From Actinomycetota bacterium (lineage in GTDB: Bacteria; Actinomycetota; Actinomycetes; S36-B12): a stretch of DNA of 55,876 nucleotides. The stretch covers positions 1 through 55,876 of the forward strand of contig CANFTO010000002.1 of assembly GCA_947449945.1 (NCBI GenBank). The letters are read 5' to 3'. Below the pieces are notes generated by a model. That model saw nothing but the letters and a program-made list of their open reading frames with translations. It made no database searches and was not told the DNA's origin. This document shows positions 543-55,821 of the stretch, in pieces. Both the position numbers and the translations under genes were made by a program. How positions within the stretch are numbered: position 1 is the stretch's first letter; every line of letters starts with the position of its first letter.

Positions 543-545
543 CTC

Positions 546-23174: not shown

Positions 23175-23180
23175 GAATGC

Positions 23181-23969: not shown

Positions 23970-24017
23970 GCTGCTCCTCGATCGATCGGTAGTTCAGGTC
24001 TCATTATTCGGCACGGG

Positions 24018-25837: not shown

Positions 25838-25850
25838 GTTCTTGAGTCCT

Positions 25851-26324
25851 TTAGATAATGAAAGCGACGGTGCGAATGGCATCTTCGTTGTTGACCAACA
25901 GTGCAGTCTTTTTCACGAGCTGCAAACCATCAGCTGTGCGACGAACGGTGTAGAGGTAGCGACCAGCCCATACATGTGTGCCATTGCGATGTTCGTACAA
26001 CACGAAGTTGGCACCAATATTGACGTCATCGCCTTGTTCGCCGAGCACTTCAAGGTTGCTGAGCATGCGGCGCATCTTCGATGGCGGGCTTTGTGAATAG
26101 CGGCGACCCGTTTTCAACTGAGCTAAACGGCTATGAATACGACTGCGATTGTCATAGATATATGAAACGTCTACCGAAGGATCTGAGTCGTCTTTGGTAG
26201 GCAACCAATAAATCGCATCGTCAGCCCACAGCGACTCCCAGTCGTCATAACGACTTTCATCCGCGTAGCGAGCTTCCAAGTACAGGAAGGCTGCAATGTC
26301 ATCGGGAACATGAGTGTTTGTCAT
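25851..26324 (-). CDS. aromatic ring-hydroxylating oxygenase, beta (small) subunit
   Basis: The string FLYLEARYADESRYDDWESLWADDAIYWLP fits the RHO small-subunit (NTF2-like) family. The start overlaps the alpha-subunit stop (TAATG). Confidence 0.8.
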   Translation of the reverse strand: MTNTHVPDDIAAFLYLEARYADESRYDDWESLWADDAIYWLPTKDDSDPSVDVSYIYDNRSRIHSRLAQLKTGRRYSQSPPSKMRRMLSNLEVLGEQGDDVNIGANFVLYEHRNGTHVWAGRYLYTVRRTADGLQLVKKTALLVNNEDAIRTVAFII

Positions 26325-27619: not shown

Positions 27620-28044
27620 CCTTTCACTGCGGTGTTGATGATGCGTGGGATGTTTTGGGTGCCAACGCGAACAAATTCAAGACGGACTTCTGTACCTGGG
27701 GCCATTGGTGTGTCGGAAACTGTGCTCGTGGACACGATGATGCGATGCCCAGAATTCAGCGATACTTCAATGACTGGATAAGCCGCATCTTGCTTCACAT
27801 AACGAGCGTCGACGCGATTCATCATGATGGAAACTGTGACTCGACCTGCAGGATCAACTGCCTCCCATACGCGTTCTTGGTGTGCACATTCATCGCAATG
27901 CAGTTGATCAAGATCAAGCGGATGCTTACACGCTGCACAAAATGGCAGCACGAGCATGCCTTCAGCTGAACCGGCCAAGTATTCAGTCAGTGGAGCGACG
28001 TCACTCGGTGCAGCTGATTCGTGAAGGAGCCAGTCGATGGTCAT
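27616..28044 (-). CDS. DUF35 protein (Zn-ribbon + OB fold), partner of SCPx-type thiolases
   Basis: Four-Cys ribbon CAACKHPLDLDQLHCDEC followed by an OB-like C-terminal half. It overlaps both neighbouring genes by 4 nt. Confidence 0.8.
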   Translation of the reverse strand: MTIDWLLHESAAPSDVAPLTEYLAGSAEGMLVLPFCAACKHPLDLDQLHCDECAHQERVWEAVDPAGRVTVSIMMNRVDARYVKQDAAYPVIEVSLNSGHRIIVSTSTVSDTPMAPGTEVRLEFVRVGTQNIPRIINTAVKG

Positions 28045-29198
28045 TGCTGTACTCCCATCACGAGTGCGTTCACGCTTTCAAGACGGCCACCAACAGACAC
28101 AACCATTGAAGTACCGGCATCGGCAATCTGACGGTTGCCACCCTGGCCGCGTAGCTGGGTAACTGCCTCAATTAGTGGGGTCGCACCCTGTAAGTAGAAC
28201 CCAGAAATTTGGCCACCGCCAGTATTTATTGGCAATGATCCGCCATGTCGCGTGTTTCCAGCCGCGATGAAGCTTCCTGCTTCCCCTGGCCCGACAACTC
28301 CCAACTCTTCCATCATGACCAGCGGAACGATCGTGAAAGCGTCGTAAATTTGAAGATTATCAATCGCGTCGACGGTCGTGCGTGCCTGCTTGAGCGCATC
28401 CGTAAACACCTCAGCAGCACCAACTGGGCGCCACGGAGAATGCGGTGCATGACGACGGCGCATAGTGTGACGCTGGGCCATGCCCCGAACGAATACCGGA
28501 TTCAGTGAATTCGATGAGTTCGGCTTGGAAACGATGAATGCCGCAGCGCCACTGACTGGTCGAGCGCAGTCAAGGCGACGAAGTGGAGCCGCGACAAGAG
28601 GTGCCTCATCATATTTTTCACGAGTCAGTGGTTCTCGAATCCAAGCAAGTGGATTCTCTACTGCCCATGAGCGCTGTGCTTGCGCAACAGCGAACAGGTC
28701 ATCGACACCTGCGTTGCGTTCGACAAAGTAGTGCTGTGCGATGAGGGCGTAAGCCGCTACTGCTCCGAGCATTCCTCCTGCACGTTCAAGTCCGCGGTAG
28801 CCAGTGTCTCCACCCATGCTTGCAAAGGCAGCTCCTGACGGAGCATTGGGCGAGATTGCTGCATCGGCGAAAACCACCACGATGTTGTCAGCTTCGCCAG
28901 CGTTGACCATGTCCGTTGCTTGCTTAAGCAACACCGACATCGTGGTGCCCTTTGACTCAAGTTCGTACAAAACCTTGAGCGTGCCAAAAGCTCCACGTCG
29001 CGAAAGATCTAGAGTGAGGTGATCGTCAGCAATCAGTTCATTTTGATTGATCAGCAACCCGTCGATTTCTCGAAGATCTAAACCAGCTTCTTGCGCAGCC
29101 ATTGAAATAGCTGACAGAGCATTGCCAGTTGCATCCGGGATTTCTTTCGGACCACAAATGACAACGCCCATCCCAGTGATGGCTGCGGATTGACTCAT
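28041..29198 (-). CDS. SCPx/Ltp-type thiolase-like protein (possibly a lyase rather than a thiolase)
   Basis: Thiolase-fold length and strings (ITGMG, LDCARPVSGAAAFIV, INTGGGQISGFYLQGATP). I cannot find a nucleophilic Cys motif at the expected position (ELESKGTTMSVLL). Confidence 0.75.
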   Translation of the reverse strand: MSQSAAITGMGVVICGPKEIPDATGNALSAISMAAQEAGLDLREIDGLLINQNELIADDHLTLDLSRRGAFGTLKVLYELESKGTTMSVLLKQATDMVNAGEADNIVVVFADAAISPNAPSGAAFASMGGDTGYRGLERAGGMLGAVAAYALIAQHYFVERNAGVDDLFAVAQAQRSWAVENPLAWIREPLTREKYDEAPLVAAPLRRLDCARPVSGAAAFIVSKPNSSNSLNPVFVRGMAQRHTMRRRHAPHSPWRPVGAAEVFTDALKQARTTVDAIDNLQIYDAFTIVPLVMMEELGVVGPGEAGSFIAAGNTRHGGSLPINTGGGQISGFYLQGATPLIEAVTQLRGQGGNRQIADAGTSMVVSVGGRLESVNALVMGVQQ

Positions 29199-29200
29199 AG

Positions 29201-30037
29201 CTACTTGCCTGCCTTGCTGAGGAAGTCAGTCGCAAGGGCGGTGAAATCAGCCGCGCGTTCGATCTGCACCCAGTGACCTGTATGTGGGAAAACATGAAGC
29301 TGCGCATCATCGATTGATTGCAACAACGTCATCGAACTTTCCAATGGGATGACCTGATCTTCTCGACCGTGAACCAACAACGTTGGATGTGCCACTCGAG
29401 CAAATTGCGATGGGTTCAGTGCCAGCAGTTCAATCCACTGCTGACGAGGTGCTGGGAAGAGAGACTCCCAGCGATCCTGTGCACCTTCTTTGATTGACGC
29501 TTGGTAACGCAATTCTCCAAGGTTTGCGGGCAACAGACTTCGGTCATACGTGAAGATCTCGAGGAGATTTTCCATTGCTTCAACCGATGGTTCATAACCC
29601 CACACGGCATCGAGACCGTCAGTCAGCTCAAAGGAAGCACCGACGCTGCCCATCAGCACAAGGCGATTAACCATCTCTGGATAGGTCGATGCAAACCAAA
29701 GTGCGAGCGCTCCGCCAAAGGAGTTGCCAATAATTGAAACCTTGGCTACACCGAGTTCATCAAGAAAGGTCTTGATATGGCGAACCCAGTCATCAGTGCG
29801 TGGAACGACGTTGCCATCGATTTCGGTGAAACCAAAACCTGCAACGTCAGGAGCAAGCACCCGGAACTGCTTTGCCAGCTCGGGCAAAATCAAACGCCAA
29901 TTTGCGTAGGCACTCACGCCAGGGCCTGATCCATGAATCAACAACACCACGTCACCTTCACCACCATCGTGATAATTGGTGGTGAAGGTGTCGTGACGAA
30001 GACTTAACCCAATTTCTGGGTTGGTTGGTGCATTCAC
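29201..30037 (-). CDS. meta-cleavage product (C-C bond) hydrolase, MhpC/BphD/HsaD type
   Basis: LLIHGSGPGVSAYANW, nucleophile elbow GNSFGG and C-terminal HTGHWVQIE are typical of MCP hydrolases. Confidence 0.85.
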   Translation of the reverse strand: MNAPTNPEIGLSLRHDTFTTNYHDGGEGDVVLLIHGSGPGVSAYANWRLILPELAKQFRVLAPDVAGFGFTEIDGNVVPRTDDWVRHIKTFLDELGVAKVSIIGNSFGGALALWFASTYPEMVNRLVLMGSVGASFELTDGLDAVWGYEPSVEAMENLLEIFTYDRSLLPANLGELRYQASIKEGAQDRWESLFPAPRQQWIELLALNPSQFARVAHPTLLVHGREDQVIPLESSMTLLQSIDDAQLHVFPHTGHWVQIERAADFTALATDFLSKAGK

Positions 30038-30603
30038 GAATTTGCCACAATCTGAGCATGTGATTCAAAGGCGCGAGCCATGTGCACAACTTCACTTGCA
30101 ACCATGCGGAGACCTTCTTCGGCGCCAGCCACTCCGGTTCCGCCTTCATCGGTTGCTGTGTTGACGACACAGCCATATGGCGTTGGCCATCCACGAAGCG
30201 CATGAACAATCATGCGAATCGTGGAGAGGGTGTTCACCGCTGCTTGGTAACCCTTAGCTACAGCGATGCTGCCAACGGGAATACCGGCAAAGTAGGAGCG
30301 CTCATCGCGCGCCATATCTTCCGTGTAATCCAATGCATTCTTGAGCATTCCAGAAATCGAGCCGTGATACGCCGCGGCAGAAATGATGATTCCGGAGGCC
30401 GCACGCATAGCCTCAACGAATTCCTTGGCTTCAGGAGTTCGATCCGGATCTGTTGGGTCATACATTGGCAACTTCTTCAACAGGTCACCTGAGAAAATCT
30501 TGACCTCTGCACCCTGTCGCTGTGCTTCATCCAGTGCTATGCGCAATGCGCCATCACTTGATGAAGTTGGACTCACTGTGCCGCCAATACCGACGATCAA
30601 CAT
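30034..30603 (-). CDS. NAD(P)H-dependent FMN reductase
   Basis: Flavodoxin-like fold. The N-terminus MLIVGIGGTVSPTSSS and the AAYHGSISG string fit the FMN_red family. Confidence 0.8.
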   Translation of the reverse strand: MLIVGIGGTVSPTSSSDGALRIALDEAQRQGAEVKIFSGDLLKKLPMYDPTDPDRTPEAKEFVEAMRAASGIIISAAAYHGSISGMLKNALDYTEDMARDERSYFAGIPVGSIAVAKGYQAAVNTLSTIRMIVHALRGWPTPYGCVVNTATDEGGTGVAGAEEGLRMVASEVVHMARAFESHAQIVANS

Positions 30604-30639
30604 AAACGTTTCTGCTTTCTTTGTGTTTTGCGGTTGAGA

Positions 30640-31800
30640 TCAGAATGATTTTCTAGAGTCGTAGTTCGCAATTGCTTGACGAACTGCATTCGCACCGAGC
30701 TCACGACCCTCATCGAGGAATTCGAAGAAGCCATTCTGTGAGTCAATCTTGCGCTTGCTTTGGCGATTGACCTCAGGGATAACGTACTCAGCAAAGAGTT
30801 CGAAGGAACGCTTGGTTGCCTCAGGGTTAGCCCACTCGTGACCCATGAGCATGTAGGTGCCGAAACCACCAGTTTGCTCCTGGAGGCGAAGAATCTGCTG
30901 AACAGCGTCATCTGGCGTACCGATGATGCCTGCACCTGATTCCTGAACCATTTGAATCGAGGTCTTGCCTTCTTGGTAACGGGAAGGCTTGTTAAGCGCA
31001 GCTGCCCACACTTCGGTGATTCGAAGCCACTGAGCAACCATCTCGTCCATGCCGTAGCCGACATCCTTTTCAGCCTGCTCACGCGTTTCAGCGATGTGCA
31101 TTGGGCCAACAAGGCGCCAGTTCTCGCGCTGTGGCTTTGGCTGACCGTAACGCTCTGCAGCTTCTTCTGCGATTGACATGTGATTTGCGAGTGCTGCGAA
31201 GCCACCTTCCGTGGTTGCAGCGGTTGAGATCATCGACAGGTTGTGCTTGCCGGCAAGTGCTGGTCCTGATGGTGAAACCACACACACGGTTGCGATTTCA
31301 AAATCGGTCATTGGCTTGAACTGCAGGATTGCTTCGTTCAATTCGAACCAGTCAGTCTTCATGGTTACTGGCTCATCTGTGCGCAGCAATTGCATGATCG
31401 CGTCAAGGCACTCTTCCATGCGGCGACGTTGGTCATTTGGGTGAATACCCATCATGAGTGCGTCTTGTGGCAATGCGCCTGGTCCAACGCCCATGAGCAA
31501 ACGGCCGTTGGTGAGGTGATCAAGCGTTGCATAACGCTCGGCGGTCAAGAATGGGTTGTGGTACGCGAGTGAAACGACGCCTGAGCCCAGAATGATGCGC
31601 TCTGTGCGACGTGCAGCAGCCGCGATGAATAGGTCAGGTGCAGGAATTAACTCCATACCGCCTGAGTGGTGCTCACCGAACACAACCTCATCGAAGCCCA
31701 AGTAATCCAGGTGCTCGATCAAGTCAAGGTCACGGTGCAATGCACGCGTGGTATTTGCCCTTGCCGAATGGAAAGGAGAAAGGAATAAACCGAATCTCAT
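30640..31800 (-). CDS. LLM-class (luciferase-like) flavin-dependent monooxygenase, LimB-like, copy B
   Basis: MRFGLFLSPFH...FGEHH...GVGPGALP...IIGTPDD...GGFGTY are TIM-barrel LLM strings. It is a paralogue of 34463-35662. Confidence 0.8.
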   Translation of the reverse strand: MRFGLFLSPFHSARANTTRALHRDLDLIEHLDYLGFDEVVFGEHHSGGMELIPAPDLFIAAAARRTERIILGSGVVSLAYHNPFLTAERYATLDHLTNGRLLMGVGPGALPQDALMMGIHPNDQRRRMEECLDAIMQLLRTDEPVTMKTDWFELNEAILQFKPMTDFEIATVCVVSPSGPALAGKHNLSMISTAATTEGGFAALANHMSIAEEAAERYGQPKPQRENWRLVGPMHIAETREQAEKDVGYGMDEMVAQWLRITEVWAAALNKPSRYQEGKTSIQMVQESGAGIIGTPDDAVQQILRLQEQTGGFGTYMLMGHEWANPEATKRSFELFAEYVIPEVNRQSKRKIDSQNGFFEFLDEGRELGANAVRQAIANYDSRKSF

Positions 31801-31846
31801 TGCGTGACACTCCTTTGTAGAGATGGAACTTTGCTGGCGTTGTTAC

Positions 31847-32716
31847 TCATTTGCTATTCCCGACTGCGCTCACCGCAACACCCATGCCGGTGATCCATTC
31901 AGGGATAGGTACATAGGTGAATCGACCAGCTGAGGCGCCTGCGGCTGCCCAGGCTGCGACCCACGTGCGAATTTCGTGCGTTCCTGAGCCCACCGAAGTG
32001 AGTTCAGGATCTTGATATTCGCGTAAAACAGACCAATTGCTGGTCGTTAAAGCCTCGAGGAACTTCTCATCCCATGGAGCGTTCACATACTTCGCTGCAT
32101 CCAGAACTGATTTGCGCGCAATCGCTTCGCGTTCTTCCGAAGGCAAAGCTCGCACTTCAGCGCTCATTGACGGCGGTTGATGTGAGAGGCCACCTGAGCC
32201 AAGGAACAACACCCGCTTATTGGTTGTTGCCATGAAGGCTCCAACAGCCTGAGCCAGATCAATTGCTCGTGAGACTGACGTACGTGGCATTGATGCGCAG
32301 TTCAACACGATGGGAATCACTGGGATTGCATCAAGTGCGCTGAATAACTGCATGAATGTTTGTCCGAAGCCATGATCGATACGAACCTCGCTACCAACAG
32401 CGACATCGAAATCATGACTCAACAGGTGCGCAGCTAGCTGGTCTGCGAGTTCAGCTGGAACCACATACGGATCTTCTGGGGTTCCCCAGTCACCGAATCC
32501 AATCGCCGATGTTGCAATCGTGATCGGTGGCACGATTCCCTGAAGCGCCCGGAAATGATCGGGCCCAAAGAACACTACGAGTTCAGGATCAAAGGCTTGA
32601 ATCGTTGCCTTGACTTCCTCGATTGCATGAAAGAAGGTCGCGCCAGCCTCGCCAGCATCAACATTATCCAACAACGGGCTATGCGAAGCACAAACGCTTA
32701 AGAACTTTGCACTCAT
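31847..32716 (-). CDS. mhpB: class III (LigB/MhpB-type) extradiol catechol dioxygenase
   Basis: CASHSPLL, FFGPDHF, RIDHGFGQ, LFLGSGGLSHQPP, THEIRTWVAA and IPEWITG are strings I associate with 2,3-dihydroxyphenylpropionate 1,2-dioxygenase-type enzymes. Confidence 0.85.
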   Translation of the reverse strand: MSAKFLSVCASHSPLLDNVDAGEAGATFFHAIEEVKATIQAFDPELVVFFGPDHFRALQGIVPPITIATSAIGFGDWGTPEDPYVVPAELADQLAAHLLSHDFDVAVGSEVRIDHGFGQTFMQLFSALDAIPVIPIVLNCASMPRTSVSRAIDLAQAVGAFMATTNKRVLFLGSGGLSHQPPSMSAEVRALPSEEREAIARKSVLDAAKYVNAPWDEKFLEALTTSNWSVLREYQDPELTSVGSGTHEIRTWVAAWAAAGASAGRFTYVPIPEWITGMGVAVSAVGNSK

Positions 32717-33591
32717 TGATGAGCCTCCACATATTCAGTGACGATCGCGTTGAACGATTCTGGTTGTTCCCACTGCGGCCAATGACCTGCATCGTCAATA
32801 ACTTTGAGTTCACCCTGTGGAGTGATTTCAGCAGCACGCTGGGCACCCTTGACTGATCCACCTGGATTGTGTTCGCCCCATAGGTACAACACCGGAACAC
32901 TGATCGATGCCAAGAGCTCAGGTGTCAGGCCAAACTTCACTCGCCCTGGTGAGTCATACGGAATCATCTGATGTAAAGCAGGGATGAGTTCGGGAGCACC
33001 TGGTTGTGAATACAACGCCAAGCGCAGGTCGACGAGTTCTTCTGGGCAACGATCAGTGTTGTGGAACAGGGTATGCAGACGATTGCGCACCGTGTCGCGA
33101 TTCAGTGTTGCTAATTCATCATTGGCTTTCTTCCAGGAATCACGATCTTTGGCCTCATTCGCCGGCTGACCTTCAGGCCAACGGAACACTGCACCAGTTG
33201 CATTCACAACACACGTCACTCGCTCAGGGCTTTCAATCGCTAACCATGAAGCTACCCAGGCACCAAGCGACAAACCTACGAAAGCGGCTTTCTTAATATC
33301 CATAACATCCATCAGGTCACGTACTTGTTGGACGTAATCTGGGATCAAGTAATCGATATCGGTTCGCTTATCGCTCAGACCATGTCCAACAAAGTCAAAG
33401 GCAATGACGTGGAAGTTTTTTGCTAATGCATTGAAGTTTTTTGCCCATGCTTCTGCGTGACCCCCTGTGCCATGAAGTAAGAAAATGGCAGGGCCACTTC
33501 CTGCTTCAATGCATCGGGTGCGAGTCCCCTTCGCATCTCGATACACCACTTCGGTGCCTAACATCATGTTCCACAATGTTGAATGACTCAT
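32713..33591 (-). CDS. alpha/beta hydrolase, second MCP-hydrolase-like enzyme
   Basis: FLLHGTGGHAEAW, nucleophile elbow GLSLGAW and C-terminal DAGHWPQWEQPE. It overlaps both neighbouring genes by 4 nt. Confidence 0.8.
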   Translation of the reverse strand: MSHSTLWNMMLGTEVVYRDAKGTRTRCIEAGSGPAIFLLHGTGGHAEAWAKNFNALAKNFHVIAFDFVGHGLSDKRTDIDYLIPDYVQQVRDLMDVMDIKKAAFVGLSLGAWVASWLAIESPERVTCVVNATGAVFRWPEGQPANEAKDRDSWKKANDELATLNRDTVRNRLHTLFHNTDRCPEELVDLRLALYSQPGAPELIPALHQMIPYDSPGRVKFGLTPELLASISVPVLYLWGEHNPGGSVKGAQRAAEITPQGELKVIDDAGHWPQWEQPESFNAIVTEYVEAHQ

Positions 33592-34454
33592 GCGGCAATC
33601 CCTGACAACACAGTGGTTTGATATTCCTCAATCCGGTCCGAGAAGGCATTGAGGTCACCATCCCAAACTGAAAGAAATACGCGATCGACGCCAATGTCAT
33701 TGAGCTCCTGCAACTGCTCAAGAGTTGCTGGAGCAACCATCGTGATTTCTATGTCACTTGGATTTTTACCAGTACGTTCGCATTCATCGGCAATTCGTTG
33801 CTTAACCTTGCGAACTTCATCAGCACTTGAGCGCATGAGATGCATACCCGCTCCAAAACGCACGGCGCGACGAACAGCTGCCTCAGAGATTCCACCAATG
33901 ACCAGTGGAATCGACTTCGTTTCGGGCTGCGGAGTGCAATACATATTTTCAAAACTGACGAATTCGCCCTTGAACGTGGCCGGCGATTGAGCCCAAAGAG
34001 CAGTCATCGCTTCGAGGTATTCATCTGCACGTGCACCTCTACGAGCAAACGGCACGCCCACCGCATCGAATTCTTCAGACAACCATCCAAGACCTAAGCC
34101 AAGGATGATGCGTCCGTTCGATAACCGATCCAAGGTTGCCATCTGCTTAGCAAGCACGACTGGATTGCGAATCGGAAGAATCACAACGCCGGTCGCCAAC
34201 TTGATTTTGCTTGTTGAAGCTGCGAGATAACTCATCCACACGATCGGATCAGGGAGATCGTCGTTGCCCGTGAGCCCCATTCTTCCGCTGGAATCAAATG
34301 GGTAGACAGAGTCGTACGAGGCAGGAACCACTACATGTTCCACCATCCACAGCGACTCACAATTATGAGCCTCTGCGATGGCACCAAGCTGCGCAACGTA
34401 GTCAGGGTCAGATGCACCCTTACCCGTTGGAACTCGAGATACCCCAAACTTCAT
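33588..34454 (-). CDS. LLM-class oxidoreductase, probably F420-dependent
   Basis: The 288-aa short LLM form carries strings (LWMVEHV, LDRLSNGRIILGLGLGW, PLVIGG) that are typical of actinobacterial F420-dependent LLM reductases. Confidence 0.65.
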   Translation of the reverse strand: MKFGVSRVPTGKGASDPDYVAQLGAIAEAHNCESLWMVEHVVVPASYDSVYPFDSSGRMGLTGNDDLPDPIVWMSYLAASTSKIKLATGVVILPIRNPVVLAKQMATLDRLSNGRIILGLGLGWLSEEFDAVGVPFARRGARADEYLEAMTALWAQSPATFKGEFVSFENMYCTPQPETKSIPLVIGGISEAAVRRAVRFGAGMHLMRSSADEVRKVKQRIADECERTGKNPSDIEITMVAPATLEQLQELNDIGVDRVFLSVWDGDLNAFSDRIEEYQTTVLSGIAA

Positions 34455-34462
34455 TGGACGAC

Positions 34463-35662
34463 CTACTCGCCACTCTTTGGCTTGTAGTTCGGATCAGCCG
34501 CGCGTTCATCAGCGAATTGCTGACGAGCCTTCTCGCGTGCTGCGAGCACCCCAGGAGTGAGATCCGGACGTCGCTGAATCGCGTACTCCTCTGCCTTGAT
34601 CATCCACTCGGTACTGCCGGTGAAGTGCGGAATCACTTCATTTGCGAACAGTTCATATGACTTCAAGGTGTTCACTCGATTGGCCCACTCATGTGCCCAG
34701 AGCAAATAGGTGCCGAAACCACCAGCTTGTTCATACAAGCGCTCAATCTGCGCGATGGCCATTTCCGGAGTGCCAATGATTGCGAAACCTGATGCGACCA
34801 GGGTCTTGGCCCATGAACCATCAACTAAACCTGATGCAGGGAGAATTGGCAGCGTGCTGACGTCCTTCATGTAGTACGCCCACTCTTGGATGCCTTGTTC
34901 AACATCTGCGTAAGCCTGCTCTTCAGTTTCAGCAAGGTACATCGGGCCAACCATGCGCCACTGGTCACGGGAAACAGGAGTGCCATAACGCTCTGCCTGC
35001 TCTTCCATAATGTCCCAGTGCTCGGCAAGCACGTTGAAGCCTGCTTGCTGGGTTGCATTCATGGACAGCAACGTTGCACCGAGGCGACCTGCAAGACGTG
35101 GACCGTTTGGCGAGATCGTTGCTGCGATCGCAACGTCAATGTCTTTGCCGTTGTATGGCTTGAGCTGCAATGCAGCGCCGTTGAGTTCGAACCAGTCGGT
35201 CTTCATTGTGACGCGCTCGCCACGAATAAGCGCCATGATGGCTTCAACTGACTGCTCCATCATTTCGCGCGTATTCAGCGTGCTGATGCCCATAGCTTCT
35301 GCGTCATATGGGAGTGCGCCTGGGCCGACACCCAACATGATGCGACCATGCGAAAGGTGGTCGAGCATCATGAAGCGCTCAGCCACGTTGAATGGGTGGT
35401 GGTAAGGAAGCGACACCACACCGGCCCCTAGTTTGATTCGTGTGGTGCGTGCAGCCACGTACGAAAGGAATACATCGGGAGACGCAACGAACTCCCAGCC
35501 TGTTGAGTGATGCTCACCCATCCAGGCCTCATCGAAACCAAGGCGATCCATGTGCTCAATGAGCTCAACATCGCGTTGGAGCGCGAGCGTTGGACTCTTG
35601 CGGCTTGAGTGCACTGGGGAAATGAATGTTCCGAACTTCATGCGGCCAGTTGGCTTCGACAT
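34463..35662 (-). CDS. LLM-class flavin-dependent monooxygenase, LimB-like, copy A (first gene of the operon)
   Basis: ATG preceded by AGGAG. MKFGTFISPVH...MGEHH...GVGPGALP...MKTDWFEL...IIGTPE...GGFGTY. Confidence 0.8.
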   Translation of the reverse strand: MSKPTGRMKFGTFISPVHSSRKSPTLALQRDVELIEHMDRLGFDEAWMGEHHSTGWEFVASPDVFLSYVAARTTRIKLGAGVVSLPYHHPFNVAERFMMLDHLSHGRIMLGVGPGALPYDAEAMGISTLNTREMMEQSVEAIMALIRGERVTMKTDWFELNGAALQLKPYNGKDIDVAIAATISPNGPRLAGRLGATLLSMNATQQAGFNVLAEHWDIMEEQAERYGTPVSRDQWRMVGPMYLAETEEQAYADVEQGIQEWAYYMKDVSTLPILPASGLVDGSWAKTLVASGFAIIGTPEMAIAQIERLYEQAGGFGTYLLWAHEWANRVNTLKSYELFANEVIPHFTGSTEWMIKAEEYAIQRRPDLTPGVLAAREKARQQFADERAADPNYKPKSGE

Positions 35663-41965: not shown

Positions 41966-42505
41966 GTGAACACCAAGCGCCATGCAACTCCAGGCTCTCT
42001 GCGTCTGTTTCGTGGCGCCGTGCTCACATCGGCAATGCTGGCACTCACCACAGCGGTCCACACCCAAGTTCACGGCGCCTTGCCCAGCATCGGAACCTTG
42101 GTCATGATCACGCCACTGGTCCTTGTTCTCAGCACGCTGTTTCTAGGCCGCCAACGTGGCTACGGGTTGCTCATTGCCTACAGCGTGGGCACTCAGGCCC
42201 TACTGCACACGCTCCTGACAGTTGGCGCTGGCCACGGCTCCCATCACGACTCGCTCCTACCATCAACACCAATGCTGCTCGGGCACCTTGGTGCCGCCAT
42301 GCTGACCGCTCTGGTGTTGGCCCGTGGCGAAGCTGTGTTAAATCGATGGGTAGAACTCCTACGAACTGCACTCTTTCGTGGCTTCACTCTTTCGTTGCCT
42401 GTGCGACCAGCCCATCGCGGATTATTCGGCGAAGTTCGCACGATTCTTACCTCGTACGACCTCGACCACGCGATTCATCGTCGTGGCCCTCCAATAGTGA
42501 TCTGA
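41966..42505 (+). CDS. hypothetical membrane protein with a His-rich loop (first gene of the copper cluster)
   Basis: Three or four TM helices, a GAGHGSHHDS loop and a C-terminal HRRGPP. The start is uncertain (GTG 41966 or ATG 42035). I recognise no family. Confidence 0.45.
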   Translation: MNTKRHATPGSLRLFRGAVLTSAMLALTTAVHTQVHGALPSIGTLVMITPLVLVLSTLFLGRQRGYGLLIAYSVGTQALLHTLLTVGAGHGSHHDSLLPSTPMLLGHLGAAMLTALVLARGEAVLNRWVELLRTALFRGFTLSLPVRPAHRGLFGEVRTILTSYDLDHAIHRRGPPIVI

Positions 42506-42579
42506 AACTCATTCGCGTCGGCGCCCATGCGTTGGCGCTTCCTTTGAATTCTCACGTTTACTTTTGGAAGGTTTTATCA

Positions 42580-43308
42580 ATGCGTAACAATGTTCGTAAG
42601 ACAGCTATCCGTTCAATTGCCGTTACCGGTGCACTCATCGCTGGTGCAGTCGTCCTTGCAAATCCAGCAAGCGCGCACATGGGTGTTGACACTCACGGAG
42701 CAACATTGACTGCAGGCAAGGGTGCCACGATTTTCTTGCGCCCAGGTCACGGTTGCATGGGCGATGCAACCAACACCATCACTGTCACAATTCCCGAGGG
42801 TGTCACTGGTGTGAAGCCACAGCAAAAAGCGGGTTGGGTAACAACCAGCACTCCGACAACTGTTTCTTGGAGTGGCGGCGCATTACCGGATGATCAGTTT
42901 GATGACTTTGGAATCAAGCTCACGTTTCCAAAACTCCCAGCTGGCCAAACCTCAGGTCCGGTCTACTTCAAAACTGTTCAGGTCTGCGATGCCGAAATTA
43001 AGGTAAAGAAGTCTGGTAAAGATGCCACAGTGACCGGAACATTGCCATCTTCGGCAGGTAAAAGTGCTGCTCTTTTCGTCGACGGAATTCCGTTGACTAA
43101 GCGCGATATCGCAATCGGTGCAGACGGATCATTCACGTTGAAGACATCATCAGCAAAAATTAAGGATGGCGCGAACGTCACTGCCAAGGTTGACGGACGT
43201 TTGGTTGGCAACTCAATGGCTGGCCAAGAAGCCTGGATCGAAACTCCAGTTGCTGGATCGACAGCAAGCCTGGCTTCGCCTGCACCTTCAGTGACGATAA
43301 CCGCGTAA
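42580..43308 (+). CDS. YcnI/DUF1775 family copper-binding protein (secreted)
   Basis: ATG at 42580 after GGAAGG. Signal peptide ending in ASA, then a mature N-terminal His (HMGVDTHGA). DUF1775 strings: FLRPGHGC, AGWVTT, DDFGIKLTFP, EAWIE...PAPSVTI. Confidence 0.8.
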   Translation: MRNNVRKTAIRSIAVTGALIAGAVVLANPASAHMGVDTHGATLTAGKGATIFLRPGHGCMGDATNTITVTIPEGVTGVKPQQKAGWVTTSTPTTVSWSGGALPDDQFDDFGIKLTFPKLPAGQTSGPVYFKTVQVCDAEIKVKKSGKDATVTGTLPSSAGKSAALFVDGIPLTKRDIAIGADGSFTLKTSSAKIKDGANVTAKVDGRLVGNSMAGQEAWIETPVAGSTASLASPAPSVTITA

Positions 43309-43322
43309 GGGATACTGAAAAT

Positions 43323-43970
43323 ATGCGTAAAGCCCTCGTGGCTGTAGTGCTGGGTTCACTGGTTCTCCTAGTGAACCCAGCATCTGCATCAGCCCATGCC
43401 GATCTGAATTCAAGTGTGCCAATCAATGGCGCGGTGATTTCTCGCGCCCCTGACAAGGTTGTGCTGACATTCAGCGAACCAGTCGAACTTCAAAGTGCTC
43501 AACTGTTCAACAGCGCGGCAAAACTCATATCAAGCAATGCAAAAATCTCAGGTTCTTCGCTCACGATTACGCCCACTGCAGCTCTTTCTGCTGGCACCAA
43601 CGTCGCTCAATGGGCAGTGAAGTCTGATGATGGACACGTGGTGAGCGGAGCTATCGCATTTGTTATAGGTAAGGCCGTCAAGCAATCAACGGTAACCGCA
43701 ATAAAGACCATGCCTGTTGTCAGTACCTCACTTAACGGCAATCACGTTGGTCAACTTGTTCTCACCATGACCTCGGCATTAACCAGCGGCGAGATCGAGT
43801 GGACAAACCCAGCACTTGCAGGCCCCATCACTTGGCGAGCAACCGGCAATGGCAAGAAAGTAACGTCTAATGGTGTTCTGCCATTTCCTGGCAACTGGAC
43901 CATGAGCGCAACCTTGGTGGGTAAAGGTGGCAGCGTGCTCATCACTACGGGAACGGTGAACCTTGTTTAA
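43323..43970 (+). CDS. CopC-domain protein with an extra C-terminal beta-rich domain
   Basis: Signal peptide ending in ASA-H, then HADLNSSVPINGAVISRAPDKVVLTFSEPVE and SDDGHVVSGAIAFVIG, the CopC Cu(II)-site pattern. Confidence 0.75.
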   Translation: MRKALVAVVLGSLVLLVNPASASAHADLNSSVPINGAVISRAPDKVVLTFSEPVELQSAQLFNSAAKLISSNAKISGSSLTITPTAALSAGTNVAQWAVKSDDGHVVSGAIAFVIGKAVKQSTVTAIKTMPVVSTSLNGNHVGQLVLTMTSALTSGEIEWTNPALAGPITWRATGNGKKVTSNGVLPFPGNWTMSATLVGKGGSVLITTGTVNLV

Positions 43971-44484
43971 GTTCTGTGTTCGCGTATTGGCTACTGCACT
44001 TCTTGCTCTTGGCCTGGTGCCGCTCGCCGCTTCCGCTAGTCAGGCGCATTCGCAGTTGGTTTCGTCAACACCCACGAATGGTGCAACACTGGCTACTGCC
44101 CCGACACAAGTCTCGTTCACTTTTGATGAAAATCTCTTGCCCGATCTCGACACTATTTCCATCAATACTGAACTTGGTGAAAACGTGGCGAGCAAGCAGA
44201 TTGAGCCAGTCGCCAACAGCCTGTCTATCCCATGGCCAAGCACGATTACTTCAGGTACATACCAAGTGGCCTATCGAATAGTCTCCGGCGATGGCCATCC
44301 AGTGACTGGTGCGATCACGTTCACGATAGGGACAGCATCAGCCTCGCCCAATGTCACAAAGGACGTCACACAAACTCAGGATGGTCCACCAACAGCCACG
44401 ATTCTTTCCGTAGTGGCATTCATCGCGGCAATGGTTTCAATCGGCCTCATCGTGATGTTGGCCAGGCGCGGTAAGGAGTCGTAA
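43963..44484 (+). CDS. CopC-domain protein with a C-terminal membrane anchor
   Basis: AHSQLVSSTPTNGATLATAPTQVSFTFDENL and YRIVSGDGHPVTGAITFTIG, with a C-terminal TM helix (ILSVVAFIAAMVSIGLIVML). There is an 8-nt overlap with the preceding CopC gene. Confidence 0.8.
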   Translation: MFKFCVRVLATALLALGLVPLAASASQAHSQLVSSTPTNGATLATAPTQVSFTFDENLLPDLDTISINTELGENVASKQIEPVANSLSIPWPSTITSGTYQVAYRIVSGDGHPVTGAITFTIGTASASPNVTKDVTQTQDGPPTATILSVVAFIAAMVSIGLIVMLARRGKES

Positions 44485-44837: not shown

Positions 44838-45668
44838 TTAACTCGAGGAAGGTGCTGCCTTGAATTCCTGAGTTGCGAACGAATCATCGTCTGCAAAGCT
44901 CTTCTCACGAGCGATCTTGTAAATCAAAAGACCGAATGCGCATTTGGCTAAAATATCGGCAATTGAATATCCCACCTGGCGGTAGACGAATGAGTCCGCA
45001 CCGTCCCAGCCAAACATTGGGAACATGTATGAAATTGGATACACGCCCCATGTTGCGAGAAGTAGCCAACGAAGACCACTGAGGTCCTTGCCTACTTGGT
45101 TCGGTTGGGACTTGGCGGCACGATTGAGCTCTACGAAAAGTACGAAGAGAATGTAGAGGAACGGAATCGTTGAAAGGGCTCCCCACACGGCCTTTACGCC
45201 ATTGTCCGATGCAAGTTCACCTGGGTATCCAAGAATGATCATCAATGCAGAAGCTGGGATCAACTTCAGTAGAAGTGACTTGCGAACCTTCGGGGCCAAT
45301 GCAAGCACGGCAATGGTTTCGAAGAGCAAAAGCGGCACAGTGAGCAGCCAGTCAACGTAGCGATAGCCCTCGTTGAAGCCTGCACCATTCACGAGTGCGT
45401 ATTTCATTCCATCGGCAGATGCAGCCAGCTCACCGGCGTCGATTGAGACATAACCCTCGGTGAATGAATTGAAAATTCGGTAATAGTGGTATGCAGCAAT
45501 GAGGCAGACCATCGCTGAAACCACGAGTGCCTGACGGTACCGAGGTAATACACGGCCCTGTACAACCAATAAAAACACGAAGGTTGCCAACATTGCAGCT
45601 AACGCGAACGATAAAACGTTATAGACAGTTTGATACTGGGAATACGACAGTTCTAAAACGGAACTCAC
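44838..45668 (-). CDS. type-1 microbial rhodopsin, xanthorhodopsin/actinorhodopsin clade, outward proton pump (DTE motif)
   Basis: RYVDWLLTVPLLLFE gives D106/T110/E117 with L114. Also AAYHYYR (His61), LGYPGE, LSTIPF, LLLATWGVYPISYM and GYSIADILAKCAFGLLIY (D238, Schiff-base K242). GTG start 6 nt after GGAGG. Confidence 0.92.
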   Translation of the reverse strand: MSSVLELSYSQYQTVYNVLSFALAAMLATFVFLLVVQGRVLPRYRQALVVSAMVCLIAAYHYYRIFNSFTEGYVSIDAGELAASADGMKYALVNGAGFNEGYRYVDWLLTVPLLLFETIAVLALAPKVRKSLLLKLIPASALMIILGYPGELASDNGVKAVWGALSTIPFLYILFVLFVELNRAAKSQPNQVGKDLSGLRWLLLATWGVYPISYMFPMFGWDGADSFVYRQVGYSIADILAKCAFGLLIYKIAREKSFADDDSFATQEFKAAPSSS

Positions 45669-45788
45669 GACCGGCCTCCATTGATACTGCTGCTGTATGA
45701 ATCACGGACCACTGCCCTCGACAGCGGTAGGTGGAAGTACACACCCAAAAGCGAAGTGCCGCTCGCGAAACAATGAAATCAATAAAAT

Positions 45789-45854: not shown

Positions 45855-46133
45855 TTAGCAGCCACCAGCAACGGCAGGAATGATCGAGATTTGCGCGCCA
45901 TCGGCGGTTGGTGAGTTCAAGCTGTCAATGAAGCGCACATCGTCATCATTGATATAGATGTTGACGAAGCGACGAAGCGCACCATTGTCATCAAGTACAC
46001 GTGCGGCGATGCCTGGGAACTGTGCTTCAAGGTCGTTGATCACTTCCTGAAGGGTTGCACCAGTTGCAGTCACCTCTGCCTCGCCACCGGTGTAGGTGCG
46101 AAGAATGGTTGGGATGCGAACGGTTGCGCTCAT
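45855..46133 (-). CDS. metO: MoaD/ThiS/CysO-family sulfur-carrier protein ending in GGC (MetO-like)
   Basis: VRIPTILRTYTGG...FVNIYINDDDVRF...IIPAVAGGC. It is a close paralogue of the CysO at 55030-55302. The ATG overlaps the stop of the ThrC-like gene (ATGA). The final TGC Cys codon followed by TAA was checked on the DNA. Confidence 0.8.
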   Translation of the reverse strand: MSATVRIPTILRTYTGGEAEVTATGATLQEVINDLEAQFPGIAARVLDDNGALRRFVNIYINDDDVRFIDSLNSPTADGAQISIIPAVAGGC

Positions 46134-47413
46134 GATGTGATCTCCTTGTAAGCAGCTTCGAAATCGTCGTATGACGGTGAAACAGTGATCGTTGGTCCAG
46201 AGGTTGGTGCAACAGCGTCAAGTGTCTTGAGGCCATCACCGGTATTGAGCAGCACAACTTCAGCTGCAGGATCGATTAATCCTTCACGCAGGAGCTTGCG
46301 GTACGTGCCGACGACTACCCCGCCTGCCGTTTCGCCAAAGATGCCTTCAGTTTCAGAAAGCAACTTGATGCCTTCAATAACTTCTTCATCAGTGACGTCA
46401 GCAAGAGCACCTTGCGTGCGGCGTACGACGTCCAATGCATACGGGCCGTCTGCTGGGTTACCAATCGCAAGTGACTTCGCGATGGTGTCTGGCTTGACTG
46501 GTTTGATGAAATCTTGTCCAGCAGCAAAGGCTTGCGATACTGGTGAACAGCCTGTTGCCTGAGCACCATAAATCTTGTAATCATGATCACTCACCAGACC
46601 AAGATCAACAAACTCACGGAATGCCTTATCGACCTTGGTCAACAGCGATCCGGAAGCAACTGGTGATACCACTGCATCAGGAAGACGCCAGCCCAGTTGT
46701 TCTGCGATTTCGTAACCAACAGTCTTGCTGCCCTCCGCGTAGTAAGGGCGAAGGTTGACGTTCACAAAACCCCAGTTACGTGATGCAGCAACTTCAGTAC
46801 ACAAACGGTTGACGTCGTCGTAGTTACCGCCGATAGCAACGAGTACACCGCCATACACAGCGGTGGTCACAATCTTTCCGGCTTCAAGGTTGGAAGGAAC
46901 AAACACCACTGACTTCAAACCTGCGCGAGCAGCAGCCGCTGCCACAGCATTTGCAAGGTTGCCTGTTGAAGCACAAGCAATAGTTTCAAAGCCAAGGCGG
47001 CGTGCATTTTCTAGTGCAACGGCAACAACGCGATCCTTGAAGGAGTGCGTTGGGTTACCTGAGTCGTCTTTCACCCACACCGTTTTTGCACCAAGCGCAG
47101 CCGCGAGGTTGTCAGCCTTGACCAACTTCGTGAGCCCAGGTTGTAGGCCTGGACGATGTCCTGCACCTGGAATCACAGGAAGTAATGCTTCATAACGCCA
47201 CATTGAAAGTGGGCCAGCTTCAATTGCTTCGCGGGTGAGCCCACGAGCTTCGTAGGCCACTTCAAGTGGACCAAAGCATTCGAAGCAGGCGTAGCTGGCA
47301 TCCAATGGATACAGCGCACCGCATTCGCGACACTTCAGGGCGTGGGCAGCACCAAGTTCAGGGTTGGTACCCAAAGTTGCAGTCATATGTACGAGGCCTT
47401 CCTTCTCGCTCAT
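46130..47413 (-). CDS. metM: threonine-synthase-family PLP enzyme with an N-terminal Zn ribbon (MetM-type, predicted homocysteine synthase)
   Basis: Ribbon CRECG...CFEC and PLP-lysine motif NPTHSFKDR. It is preceded by a SAM-I riboswitch and translationally coupled to a sulfur-carrier gene. Confidence 0.75.
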   Translation of the reverse strand: MSEKEGLVHMTATLGTNPELGAAHALKCRECGALYPLDASYACFECFGPLEVAYEARGLTREAIEAGPLSMWRYEALLPVIPGAGHRPGLQPGLTKLVKADNLAAALGAKTVWVKDDSGNPTHSFKDRVVAVALENARRLGFETIACASTGNLANAVAAAAARAGLKSVVFVPSNLEAGKIVTTAVYGGVLVAIGGNYDDVNRLCTEVAASRNWGFVNVNLRPYYAEGSKTVGYEIAEQLGWRLPDAVVSPVASGSLLTKVDKAFREFVDLGLVSDHDYKIYGAQATGCSPVSQAFAAGQDFIKPVKPDTIAKSLAIGNPADGPYALDVVRRTQGALADVTDEEVIEGIKLLSETEGIFGETAGGVVVGTYRKLLREGLIDPAAEVVLLNTGDGLKTLDAVAPTSGPTITVSPSYDDFEAAYKEITS

Positions 47414-47530
47414 CTGTCCTGGTGTTACAGGTCGGAGTTGGCACCGAACTTTGATGGGCCTCGCAAGCGAGTTATCAAATAGGTTGCCGGGGCTTCAACG
47501 GGCCGTATCCCTCTGCCCCTCTGGATGAGG
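47409..47530 (-). promoter_or_regulatory. SAM-I (S-box) riboswitch, translational type
   Basis: Minus-strand RNA: CUCAUCCAGAGGGGCAGAGGGAUACGGCCCGUUGAAGCCCCGGCAACC...GGUGCCAACUCCGACCUGUAACACCAGGACAGAUGAG. It shows the S-box core strings, P2 GGGGC/GCCCC, and P1 CUCAUC/GAUGAG whose 3' strand contains the ATG. Confidence 0.85.
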
Positions 47531-47548
47531 TATTCAGTTATGAGGCAA

Positions 47549-47593: not shown

Positions 47594-47860
47594 TTACTTG
47601 TGGCGCCGGGTCATGAACTTCAGACCGACCACGCTTGCCAGAACGCCAGCAGTGACAGCCGCGCGCTTTGGCCTTATCCCGCCAAATTCGTCAGTGAAGA
47701 TTCCGGTGATGGCACCTAGGCCACGCTTGCGTAAGGAAGCTGGGCTGAGCTGTTCCTTGAGATCGTCGACCGAGGCCAATAACTCAGCTCGAGCCGCGGT
47801 AATTTCCGCGACGAGTGCATCGATCTGAGGATCGTTGCCGTGTTCTGCATGTGGGGCCAC
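47594..47860 (-). CDS. DUF3618-like small protein with a C-terminal TM helix
   Basis: The N-terminal helix DPQIDALVAEITAARAELLASVDDLKEQL resembles DUF3618, and there is a C-terminal hydrophobic segment. GTG start. Confidence 0.5.
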   Translation of the reverse strand: MAPHAEHGNDPQIDALVAEITAARAELLASVDDLKEQLSPASLRKRGLGAITGIFTDEFGGIRPKRAAVTAGVLASVVGLKFMTRRHK

Positions 47861-54070: not shown

Positions 54071-55302
<1,232 letters not shown>

Positions 55303-55404
55303 GACAACTCCCATCAGTCGGAACGAGTTTCCGCTACAACCTCACGATAGGGCCGCGTTTTCCTGCTGACTACTACAAAATTCCTAGTTGCCAAGGCTTT
55401 GCAG

Positions 55405-55821
55405 TTAGAGGACCTCGACCGGCTCCTCGGTCACTTCGCCATCCACGATTCGGTACGAACGAAACTCCACTGGCCCAGGCTCTTGCCCATGCTCCCGTGT
55501 GGATATCAGCACGTAATGCGCCCCTGGTTCCCCAGCCAACGTCACATCAGTTCGCGATGGATAGGCCTCTGTGGCGGTATGTGAGTGATAGATAACGACC
55601 GGCTCTTCGTCGCGATCATCCATCTCCCGGTACAGCTTGAGTAGATCACTTGAATCAAACTCGTAGAAGGTGGTCGAGCGCGCAGCATTGATCATGGGAA
55701 TGAATCGCTCAGGTGAATCACTGCCCGCCGCACCAGCCACAACACCACAGGCTTCATCAGGATGATCCGCCTTGGCATGTCCAACAATCTGGTCCACCAG
55801 TGTCTGAGAAATTTGAAGCAC
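55405..55821 (-). CDS. mec: JAMM/MPN+ metalloprotease Mec (CysO-cysteine peptidase)
   Basis: The Glu in PDEACGVV and the JAMM motif HSHTATEAYPSRTD (HxHx7Sx2D). It lies upstream of cysO-cysM. Confidence 0.85.
   Translation of the reverse strand: MLQISQTLVDQIVGHAKADHPDEACGVVAGAAGSDSPERFIPMINAARSTTFYEFDSSDLLKLYREMDDRDEEPVVIYHSHTATEAYPSRTDVTLAGEPGAHYVLISTREHGQEPGPVEFRSYRIVDGEVTEEPVEVL

Follow-up and report, generated by a model that had tools for sequence, protein, structure and literature searches.

The locus examined here raises two questions. Does a gene that is named "threonine synthase" in every naming source, but lies between a SAM riboswitch and a sulfur carrier gene, serve methionine synthesis, a point that matters for annotation, and how would its leader control it? 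The locus has three parts, a SAM-I riboswitch, a metM-like gene and a metO-like gene, all on the minus strand of the 55.9-kb stretch of DNA that was analysed (the window), as established from the sequence and by profile searches. A preliminary description of this DNA had named a SAM-I riboswitch, a PLP enzyme resembling threonine synthase (ThrC) with an NPTHSFKDR motif and a CxxC ribbon, and an overlap of the enzyme stop with the carrier start as ATGA. Every element was confirmed in place, the riboswitch by its Rfam match, the enzyme by PF00291, TIGR00260 and its motifs at 46130-47386, and the 4-nt overlap of the carrier ATG with the enzyme TGA at 46130-46133. The features are the following:

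47407..47531, minus strand: SAM-I riboswitch aptamer (P1-P4), Rfam RF00162, 74.4 bits
47397..47407, minus strand: purine-rich Shine-Dalgarno stretch GAGAAGGAAGG directly after P1, read from the sequence
46130..47386, minus strand: metM-like gene, ThrC-family PLP enzyme, 418 aa; PF00291, TIGR00260 and motifs
45855..46133, minus strand: metO-like gene, sulfur carrier of the ThiS/MoaD/CysO family, 92 aa, C-terminus GGC
45751..45766, minus strand: weak hairpin resembling a terminator, between metO and the rhodopsin gene that follows it, consensus scan, 5-pair stem

The enzyme reading frame as listed spans 46130-47413 (427 aa) and begins with an ATG at 47413 that falls within the 3' strand of P1. 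The ATG at 47386, giving 418 aa, is the likely start, because the Shine-Dalgarno stretch precedes it and because gene callers assign 418 aa to the identical genes on two public contigs. In profile searches the product matched PF00291 PALP (E=1.5e-71) and NCBIfam TIGR00260 thrC (266.8 bits, cutoff 167.1). It carries an N-terminal four-cysteine ribbon, C19-x2-C22...C34-x2-C37 (CRECG...CFEC), and the motif NPTHSFKDR contains the Schiff-base lysine. Cysteate synthase was considered as another identity and dismissed, its score of 67.7 bits falling short of the 324.9-bit cutoff. The carrier, which ends in ...AVAGGC, matched PF02597 ThiS (E=1.7e-16) and M. tuberculosis CysO (3dwg_C, E=4.7e-27). It also matched 4n6e_B, deposited as a "ThiS/MoaD family protein", which we take to belong to a thiosugar system. 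The hairpin at 45751..45766 was not significant in the consensus scan (1 site found versus 3.1 in shuffles). A sigma-70 promoter scan of the locus returned no site; a -10-like TAAGGT at 47554-47549 is a candidate suggested by comparison with other leaders.

A genome scan with a 7-sequence alignment of close relatives as query, an 18-sequence alignment being too diverse, revealed 585 relatives of the enzyme among GTDB species genomes. The best 80 of these came without exception from Actinomycetota, with Streptomyces contributing about 24 species (61-65% identity); the closest named relative was a Nanopelagicales MAG (85%). A ThiS-like gene lay directly downstream in 61 of the best 80 loci, at a gap of -4 to +281 nt, and 19 had no adjacent carrier gene. 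The 61 adjacent carriers ended in GG (42), GGC (15) or GG plus three residues (3). SAM-I core motifs were present upstream in 78 of the best 80 loci. A SAM-I leader is found in no fewer than 72 of the 80 (72 fully parsed), and RF00162 matches of 67-86 bits were obtained in 10 of 11 tested loci that had been negative by regular expression. As the same arrangement recurs in dozens of genomes, it is far beyond chance. The window locus is an ordinary copy of a three-part type widespread across Actinomycetota. The "unusual features" attributed to it earlier were therefore not borne out, the GGC end being shared by 15 of 61 carriers, nor did the remark that the route has had little biochemical study hold, in view of 585 relatives and a pathway already included in the annotation tool GapMind.

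The match of the leader to RF00162 (74.4 bits versus a gathering threshold of 44.4, E=1.2e-15 in Rfam cmscan) covered model positions 1-108 of 108. All aptamer helices were aligned, giving a four-helix junction P1-P4 with the conserved SAM-binding core, in which the P1 5' strand CUCAUC (47529-47524) pairs with the 3' strand GAUGAG (47414-47409). From P1 to the start codon the window leader has 20 nt, and in 73 of 73 parsed leaders the distance from the end of P1 to the start codon, inclusive, was 11-25 nt. Since this short gap leaves no room for a terminator, and a consensus scan found no terminator-like site between aptamer and start codon, control is most likely exerted at translation initiation. 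Reading of the homologous leaders showed neither a conserved extension of P1 over the Shine-Dalgarno stretch nor a conserved anti-P1 element at the tail end.

What might then couple SAM binding to initiation? Complementarity between the P3 terminal loop and the spacer between Shine-Dalgarno stretch and AUG suggests translational control through a pseudoknot with the following proposed strands:

47457..47465, minus strand: proposed 5' strand UGCGAGGCC on the 3' side of the P3 terminal loop, read from the sequence
47390..47398, minus strand: proposed 3' strand GGCCUCGUA, found by complementarity

The 3' strand takes in the final two G of the Shine-Dalgarno stretch, and 3 nt separate its end from the start codon. 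When whole P3 inserts were paired with long tails in RNAduplex, the z-scores were not significant, since GC-rich coding sequence gives rise to spurious duplexes; these runs were replaced by a contiguous-helix search restricted to the UTR and by counts of base pairs in a MAFFT alignment. In 45 of 73 homologous leaders the search placed a helix of 7 bp or more at this position. In the alignment 77.7% of cells were paired, versus 35-48% when the partner was slid, and column shuffles already gave 74.2%. At least one double change occurred in each of the 9 pairs, few overall (1-6 per pair), and the covariation score exceeded all but 4 of 500 shuffles. The signal is mostly sequence conservation, and the covariation is modest. 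Compensatory variants were seen in leaders L027, L048, L042, L036, L081, L006 and L091. The complementary motifs GCGAGGCC and GGCCUCGC are kept from Nanopelagicales to Streptomyces, with a P3 insert of 15-209 nt and a fixed pairing register (10-13 nt from the P3 3' end, 0-6 nt from the start codon).

The proposed pairing resembles PK-2 of the SAM-IV riboswitch, where, according to a cryo-EM structure, the P3 loop pairs with sequence 3' of the descending P1 strand around the same SAM-binding core, which makes a pseudoknot between P3 loop and 3' tail sterically possible in this aptamer core (PMC6890682). In contrast to SAM-IV, the present RNA is a full SAM-I aptamer (RF00162) with P4 in its normal place, and the 3' strand of its putative pseudoknot lies in the spacer between Shine-Dalgarno stretch and AUG and would double as expression platform. 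We infer that the operon would be turned off by the SAM-I riboswitch when SAM is plentiful. In the SAM-bound fold, the spacer would pair with the P3 loop in the geometry of SAM-IV PK-2, and the Shine-Dalgarno stretch would become a short linker with a helix on either side. We give an even chance to the view that the actinobacterial metM leader combines a SAM-I aptamer with a SAM-IV-like pseudoknot, the aptamer itself acting as translational expression platform without a separate sequestering hairpin.

It is possible, if somewhat doubtful, that the riboswitch works without this pseudoknot, by Rho-dependent termination or by simple occlusion of the Shine-Dalgarno stretch beside P1, and that the GCGAGGCC/GGCCUCGC complementarity is an inherited feature with another role or none. 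The closeness of the shuffled to the observed pairing and the lack of an unbroken helix of 7 bp or more in 28 of 73 leaders would fit such a mechanism, as would the ability of the CGAG of the P3 loop to pair locally with CUCG inside the loop; minimum free energy folding of the leader, which did not recover the riboswitch fold (z = -0.09), was uninformative. Against it stand the fixed register, several independent compensatory changes and the persistence of complementary 7-9-mers in a spacer of the UTR and in a hypervariable loop, even between orders that share only about 62% protein identity. A genuine pairing of P3 loop and ribosome binding site would reveal a way in which translation in high-GC bacteria can come under the control of SAM-I riboswitches, and it would tie the SAM-I architecture to that of SAM-IV. 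No such pseudoknot platform for SAM-I was described in the papers found by a limited literature search, and this apparently conserved pairing is the only part of the locus that might interest specialists. The local CUCG/CGAG hairpin of the P3 loop competes with the pseudoknot, and the proposal gives no reason why SAM binding would favour the latter.

The product of the operon can be approached through a known system. In Streptomyces albulus, the ThrC homologue MetM makes homocysteine from O-phospho-homoserine, using MetO-thiocarboxylate (Hasebe et al., 2024, AEM 90:e01247-24, as given in passages of PMC12172450 and of the GapMind 2026 preprint), and Mec and MoeZ are cited in the same passages as accessory enzymes. 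The passage of PMC12172450 places a SAM riboswitch upstream of metM, and that of GapMind already includes the MetM/MetO thiocarboxylate pathway and lists Mec as the enzyme maturing MetO. The Streptomyces route named in the preliminary description agrees with these accounts, and its assignment of the pair to the methionine pathway is supported by a clade, a gene order and a riboswitch shared with about 24 Streptomyces loci. As far as the accounts go, S. albulus has a ThrC-family enzyme gene followed by a gene for a ThiS-like carrier, a SAM riboswitch upstream, and Mec together with CysO/CysM in the genome, and it belongs to the same phylum. The Streptomyces congeners have a 61-65% identical enzyme and the identical gene order. 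They differ from the window locus in belonging to another order and, for most loci, in a 14-170 nt gap where the window genes overlap by 4 nt. No mechanistic difference could be read from the sequences in this comparison. Judged against these congeners rather than the characterised S. albulus proteins, the operon is very probably an orthologue of Streptomyces metM-metO that makes homocysteine via a carrier thiocarboxylate.

Comparison with ThrC proteins of solved structure was consistent with this assignment. In a neighbour-joining tree, the 73 locus proteins formed one clade, with the solved ThrCs and more distant representatives outside; the phylogenetic placement proposed earlier as a check thus groups the enzyme with the Streptomyces metM loci (61-65%), apart from the solved ThrCs 2zsj, 6cgq and 1uim (33-36%). 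A further solved ThrC, 2d1f, was matched at 146.9 bits. The enzyme shares with canonical ThrC the fold family, the PLP lysine motif SFKDR and presumably the substrate O-phosphohomoserine. However, the clade has STGNL for STGNT, VNVN[LV]RPYY for VN-SVNP[YH]R and P[IV]ASGS for PVGNAGN. STGNL, RPYY and ASGS were found in the window enzyme and in all 73 locus proteins, in which the ThrC motifs STGNT, NP[YH]R and GNAGN did not occur. We take these three differing motifs to be phosphate-, substrate- or cofactor-binding sites. The four-cysteine N-terminal ribbon is absent from the solved ThrCs compared.

A second sulfur system is located in the window. The mec-cysO-cysM genes reported earlier as neighbours of the locus are all three present, in a cluster at 54071-55821:

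55405..55821, minus strand: mec-like JAMM metalloprotease gene, desampylase match below cutoff, JAMM motif HSHTATEAYPSRTD
55030..55314, minus strand: cysO-like carrier gene, product ending in GG and 62% identical to the metO product
54071..55018, minus strand: cysM-like cysteine synthase gene, TIGR01136 cysKM 350.2 bits, cutoff 344

The mec gene lies about 9 kb from metO. Its product scored 66 bits against the NCBIfam desampylase profile, below the 130-bit cutoff, and its translation contains the JAMM motif HSHTATEAYPSRTD (HSHT...S..D). Since GapMind describes Mec so, this product is likely the enzyme that removes the C-terminal cysteine of MetO and that hydrolyses adducts of carrier and amino acid. 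A gene for MoeZ (ThiF-rhodanese) was not found among the ORFs of the 55.9-kb window, and neither another thrC nor hom or thrB was found within it.

From these parts we infer the following route. The 92-aa MetO would be made with an extra C-terminal cysteine, which Mec would trim to expose Gly-Gly, and a MoeZ-type enzyme encoded outside the window would adenylate the carrier and convert it to the thiocarboxylate. MetM would then remove phosphate from O-phospho-L-homoserine and add the carrier sulfur, giving homocysteine, possibly by way of a carrier-homocysteine adduct freed by Mec, by analogy with CysM/CysO. The homocysteine would finally be methylated to methionine.

It is improbable that the pair makes another sulfur compound, or that the enzyme is an O-phosphohomoserine sulfhydrylase acting on free sulfide, with a carrier that is dispensable or serves another acceptor. 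The 19 of the best 80 loci without an adjacent carrier could be read in this way, and carriers of the ThiS/CysO kind serve in thiosugar, thioquinolobactin and cofactor synthesis as well. Nevertheless, SAM riboswitch control points to methionine, the loci hold no further biosynthetic genes, and the Streptomyces system, in the published accounts cited above, uses a carrier thiocarboxylate. Still less probable is a genuine threonine synthase with a carrier gene that is unrelated or serves cysteine or cofactor synthesis: the TIGR00260 score well over its cutoff and the naming of homologues in every database favour it, as does weak in vitro threonine synthase activity of a cyanobacterial homologue, but there would be no regulatory logic in turning off threonine synthesis with SAM, the carrier gene is coupled in translation to the enzyme gene (ATGA) and kept beside it in 61 of the best 80 loci, identity to the solved ThrCs is low and three motifs differ, and a passage of the GapMind 2026 preprint warns of MetM misannotated as ThrC. 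It would make no sense for a housekeeping threonine synthase to be shut off by SAM. All named homologues carry the label threonine synthase. The cyanobacterial protein, 51.6% identical to MetM, is described in a passage of PMC12172450 as a weak threonine synthase and threonine deaminase that did not behave fully like a MetM; membership of the family is therefore not enough to tell the activity.

A metM-metO operon of this kind is part of an already known route and brings little new biology after Hasebe et al. (2024) and GapMind 2026. If the enzyme is a MetM, it fills the homocysteine step in methionine-pathway reconstructions of a freshwater actinobacterial lineage, and the cell would route sulfur to both cysteine and methionine via protein thiocarboxylates with one shared JAMM protease.

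Among related systems, CysM/CysO/Mec/MoeZ of M. tuberculosis likewise combines a fold-type II PLP enzyme, an O-phospho amino acid, a carrier thiocarboxylate and a JAMM hydrolase. The window enzyme differs in belonging to the ThrC subfamily, not to CysK/CysM, in its presumed substrate, O-phosphohomoserine instead of O-phosphoserine, and in the riboswitch control of its operon. Protein-thiocarboxylate-dependent methionine synthesis was reportedly described by Krishnamoorthy and Begley in 2011 for HcyS/HcyD/HcyF/MetY of Wolinella succinogenes, where a ThiS-like carrier is said to give the homocysteine sulfur and a JAMM protease to remove a C-terminal extension of the carrier, a feature likened to the window system. 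That organism is said to use the fold-type I O-acetylhomoserine sulfhydrylase MetY with O-acetylhomoserine rather than a ThrC homologue with O-phosphohomoserine. The surroundings of the mec-cysO-cysM cluster in the window show M. tuberculosis-like synteny to murI-rph-rdgB.

The features of the locus and the nearby cysteine-pathway genes, all on the minus strand, are as follows.

47407-47531, minus strand, full-length SAM-I riboswitch (Rfam RF00162, 74.4 bits against a gathering score of 44.4, E=1.2e-15)
46130-47386, minus strand, probable metM, ThrC-family PLP enzyme (PF00291, E=1.5e-71; NCBIfam thrC model, 266.8 bits), with its likely start at 47386
45855-46133, minus strand, probable metO, ThiS-family sulfur carrier of 92 aa with the C-terminus AVAGGC, its ATG overlapping the metM TGA
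55405-55821, mec
55030-55314, cysO, its product ending in GG and 62% identical to that of metO
54071-55018, cysM

The riboswitch before a ThrC-family gene, the NPTHSFKDR sequence and N-terminal CxxC...CxxC of the enzyme (C19-x2-C22...C34-x2-C37), the overlap of its stop with the carrier start and the nearby mec-cysO-cysM genes had been reported in the preliminary description, which was confirmed in every detail. The metM start chosen by the ORF lister (47413) is an ATG within the 3' strand of aptamer helix P1 (GAUGAG, 47414-47409). The ATG at 47386, giving 418 aa, is the likely start because it is preceded by the Shine-Dalgarno (SD)-like GAGAAGGAAGG (47407-47397) and because this is the gene-caller length for identical genes on two public contigs as well as the length of nearly all homologues.

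According to three papers citing Hasebe et al. (2024), from which the content of that work is taken here, MetM of Streptomyces albulus forms homocysteine from O-phospho-homoserine and MetO-thiocarboxylate; by these descriptions the Streptomyces route had been given accurately in the preliminary description. The GapMind 2026 preprint, which cites the 2024 work, gives MetO, Mec, MoeZ and MetM as pathway steps, and a further 2026 preprint repeats the MetM/MetO description. PMC12172450 places a SAM riboswitch upstream of S. albulus metM and reports 47% identity between S. albulus metO and the carrier gene beside a cyanobacterial thrC.

Relatives were surveyed in one genome per GTDB species, which yielded 585, and details were taken from the best 80 of these. 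The 80 (61-85% identity) were all Actinomycetota, the closest being a Nanopelagicales MAG; about 24 were Streptomyces species, and the remaining genera included Nocardioides, Kribbella, Actinomadura, Streptosporangium, Pseudonocardia, Nocardiopsis and others. A ThiS-like gene lay directly 3' of metM in 61 of the 80 loci (-4 to +281 nt, tblastn) and SAM-I core motifs lay upstream in 78; RF00162 matches of 67-86 bits were obtained in 10 of 11 regex-negative loci, and 72 leaders were fully parsed. In a neighbor-joining tree all 73 locus proteins formed one clade, containing the window enzyme; the more divergent representatives of the 50% clusters fell outside it, as did three threonine synthases of known structure (33-36% identity to the window enzyme). 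Three motifs that we take to be phosphate- and substrate-binding loops read STGNT, VN-SVNP[YH]R[IL]EG and PVGNAGN in these solved ThrCs and STGNL, VNVN[LV]RPYY[AG]EG and P[IV]ASGS in the metM clade, window enzyme included. Moreover, the N-terminal Cys4 ribbon is present in the clade whereas it is absent from the solved ThrCs. A SAM-repressed gene can hardly be the threonine synthase of the cell. The clade, the downstream carrier and the SAM-I leader common to relatives indicate that the earlier reading as MetM/MetO was correct, and the window pair is very probably metM-metO. On sequence comparison it is an orthologue of the published system, already in an annotation tool and widespread in the phylum.

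No ThiS-like gene was detected within about 400 nt downstream in 19 of the 80 SAM-riboswitch metM-like loci (L007, L016, L017, L022, L024, L025, L027, L036, L043, L051, L055 and others; L-numbers designate the loci compared), many of them from Pseudonocardiales, Frankiales and Sporichthyaceae. The enzyme at these loci may rely on CysO or some other carrier, or may draw its sulfur from a different donor.

The features of the window copy previously regarded as unusual proved to be common. The downstream carriers of the 61 loci ended in GG (42), GGC (15, including S. luteolus, S. fuscigenes, S. filamentosus and S. cirratus) or GG plus three residues (3), the 4-nt metM/metO overlap was common among related loci, and the Cys4 ribbon was conserved in the wider family, in members with as little as about 35% identity. 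Among the metagenome relatives L083-L101 (82-98% identity) MetO ended in GG (e.g., L085, L086, L091), GGC (L084, L087, L089, L090, L098) or GGA (L092); ends with three further residues occurred in more distant genomes (GGTQR in L035, GGAER in L053, GGAGA in L068). The difference among close relatives indicates that the putative removable cap is evolutionarily labile. The encoded terminal Cys mimics the CysO-Cys adduct hydrolyzed by Mec. This would fit the GapMind 2026 preprint, which requires Mec for maturing a MetO terminus (in its wording, the "N terminus").

The possible riboswitch pseudoknot is the sole part of the locus deserving specialist follow-up. Transcription attenuation via an intrinsic terminator was excluded, since the distance from the P1 end to the start codon (inclusive) was 11-25 nt in all 73 leaders and a scan of the window found no terminator-like site between aptamer and start codon. 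Reading of the leaders revealed a recurring pair of complementary motifs: one, GCGAGGCC, on the 3' side of a P3 loop that is hypervariable otherwise (P3 insert 15-209 nt), the other, GGCCUCGC, between SD and AUG. The window copies of the two, UGCGAGGCC (47465-47457) and GGCCUCGUA (47398-47390), can form 9 bp, one of them G-U. In 45 of the 73 leaders the two motifs form an uninterrupted helix of 7 bp or more, in a fixed register that puts it 10-13 nt from the P3 3' end and 0-6 nt from the start codon. When pairs were counted on a MAFFT alignment made without regard to structure, 77.7% of the cells paired (P4 control helix, 90%), dropping to 35-48% when the partner columns were slid by 1-3. Each of the 9 pairs had one or more double changes, and only 4 of 500 shuffles reached the covariation score. 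Compensatory variants included CGUGAGG/CCUCACG (L027 and independently L091), GCGGGGCCU/AGGCCCCGC (L048), GGUC/GACC (L036, L042, L081) and GCGGAGAC/GUCUCCGC (L006). Column shuffles already gave 74.2% paired cells, and the signal is mostly conservation; the long helix is missing from 28 of the 73 leaders, and a local CUCG/CGAG hairpin within the P3 loop competes with it. The geometry is plausible because a pseudoknot of just this kind (PK-2), joining the P3 loop to the 3' tail, is found in SAM-IV riboswitches, which share the ligand-binding core. In the SAM-bound state P1 and the pseudoknot between P3 loop and SD-AUG spacer would form together, leaving the SD as a 5-7-nt strap between P1 and the pseudoknot helix and burying the start region. 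The chances that the metM translation start is controlled in this way appear about evenly balanced.

In the more distant relatives L106 and L108, whose enzymes share 53-54% identity with that of the window, SAM-I cores with long terminator/antiterminator-like tails were seen by eye, suggesting that the expression platform differs between lineages; in that case SAM would control metM-like genes through mechanisms that vary with the lineage. At the other end of the leader, a conserved ACAACUGAAUAC-like motif (window AUAACUGAAUAC, 47541-47530, minus strand) was seen in 39 of the 73 metM leaders, from several orders (loci L003-L082), at 10-14 nt upstream of the 5' strand of P1. An actinobacterial -10-like hexamer (window TAAGGT, 47554-47549) usually comes before the motif, which may represent a conserved transcript 5' end. 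Immediately upstream of the riboswitch is a gene for a small DUF3618 protein (47594-47860, minus strand), which keeps this position in relatives with as little as about 40% identity (L083-L098), and a CCUGCA/UGCAGG hairpin lies between this gene and the riboswitch promoter region.

The 55.9-kb window contains no hom, thrB, thrC, moeZ or metX/metY. The DUF3618 gene also precedes metM in an 86%-identical relative (L083), which shares with the window the ZnuABC, AhpC, RdgB and RNase PH genes that separate the met and cys clusters, so that the closeness of metMO and mec-cysOM seems to reflect inherited synteny rather than an operon. A bacteriorhodopsin-family gene (44838-45668, minus strand; PF01036, E=2e-39) lies 186 nt 3' of metO on the same strand. 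The D..T..E pattern in RYVDWLLTVPLLLFE and the Lys in SIADILAK, identified by eye, suggest a rhodopsin of the proton-pump type. Only the closest relatives (L084, L089, L090, L098) have this gene after metO; L083 has a rhodanese and a DUF1416 gene in its place. Just downstream of the rhodopsin gene of the window, on the opposite strand, lies a copper-handling cluster (42346-44484, plus strand) in which two CopC-domain genes come after a DUF1775 (YcnI-like) gene.

Elsewhere in the window, the 3' end of a tetrapyrrole methylase gene followed by a siroheme-type CbiX chelatase gene (12-1244, plus strand) and a TauE/SafE sulfite exporter gene (12289-13044, plus strand) suggest that assimilatory sulfite reduction genes lie just beyond the window. 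A 585-aa protein (4737-6494, plus strand) matched over its full length the animal haem peroxidase family (PF03098, E=5e-161), which is uncommon in bacteria. A long same-strand catabolic cluster (21226-35662, minus strand) encodes an HMGL/DmpG aldolase, an acetaldehyde dehydrogenase, an FAA-family hydratase, an AMP-ligase, alpha and beta subunits of a Rieske oxygenase, thiolase-like proteins, two alpha/beta hydrolases, an FMN reductase, three luciferase-like monooxygenases and a LigB extradiol dioxygenase, and its predicted content resembles a steroid or aromatic ring-cleavage pathway.
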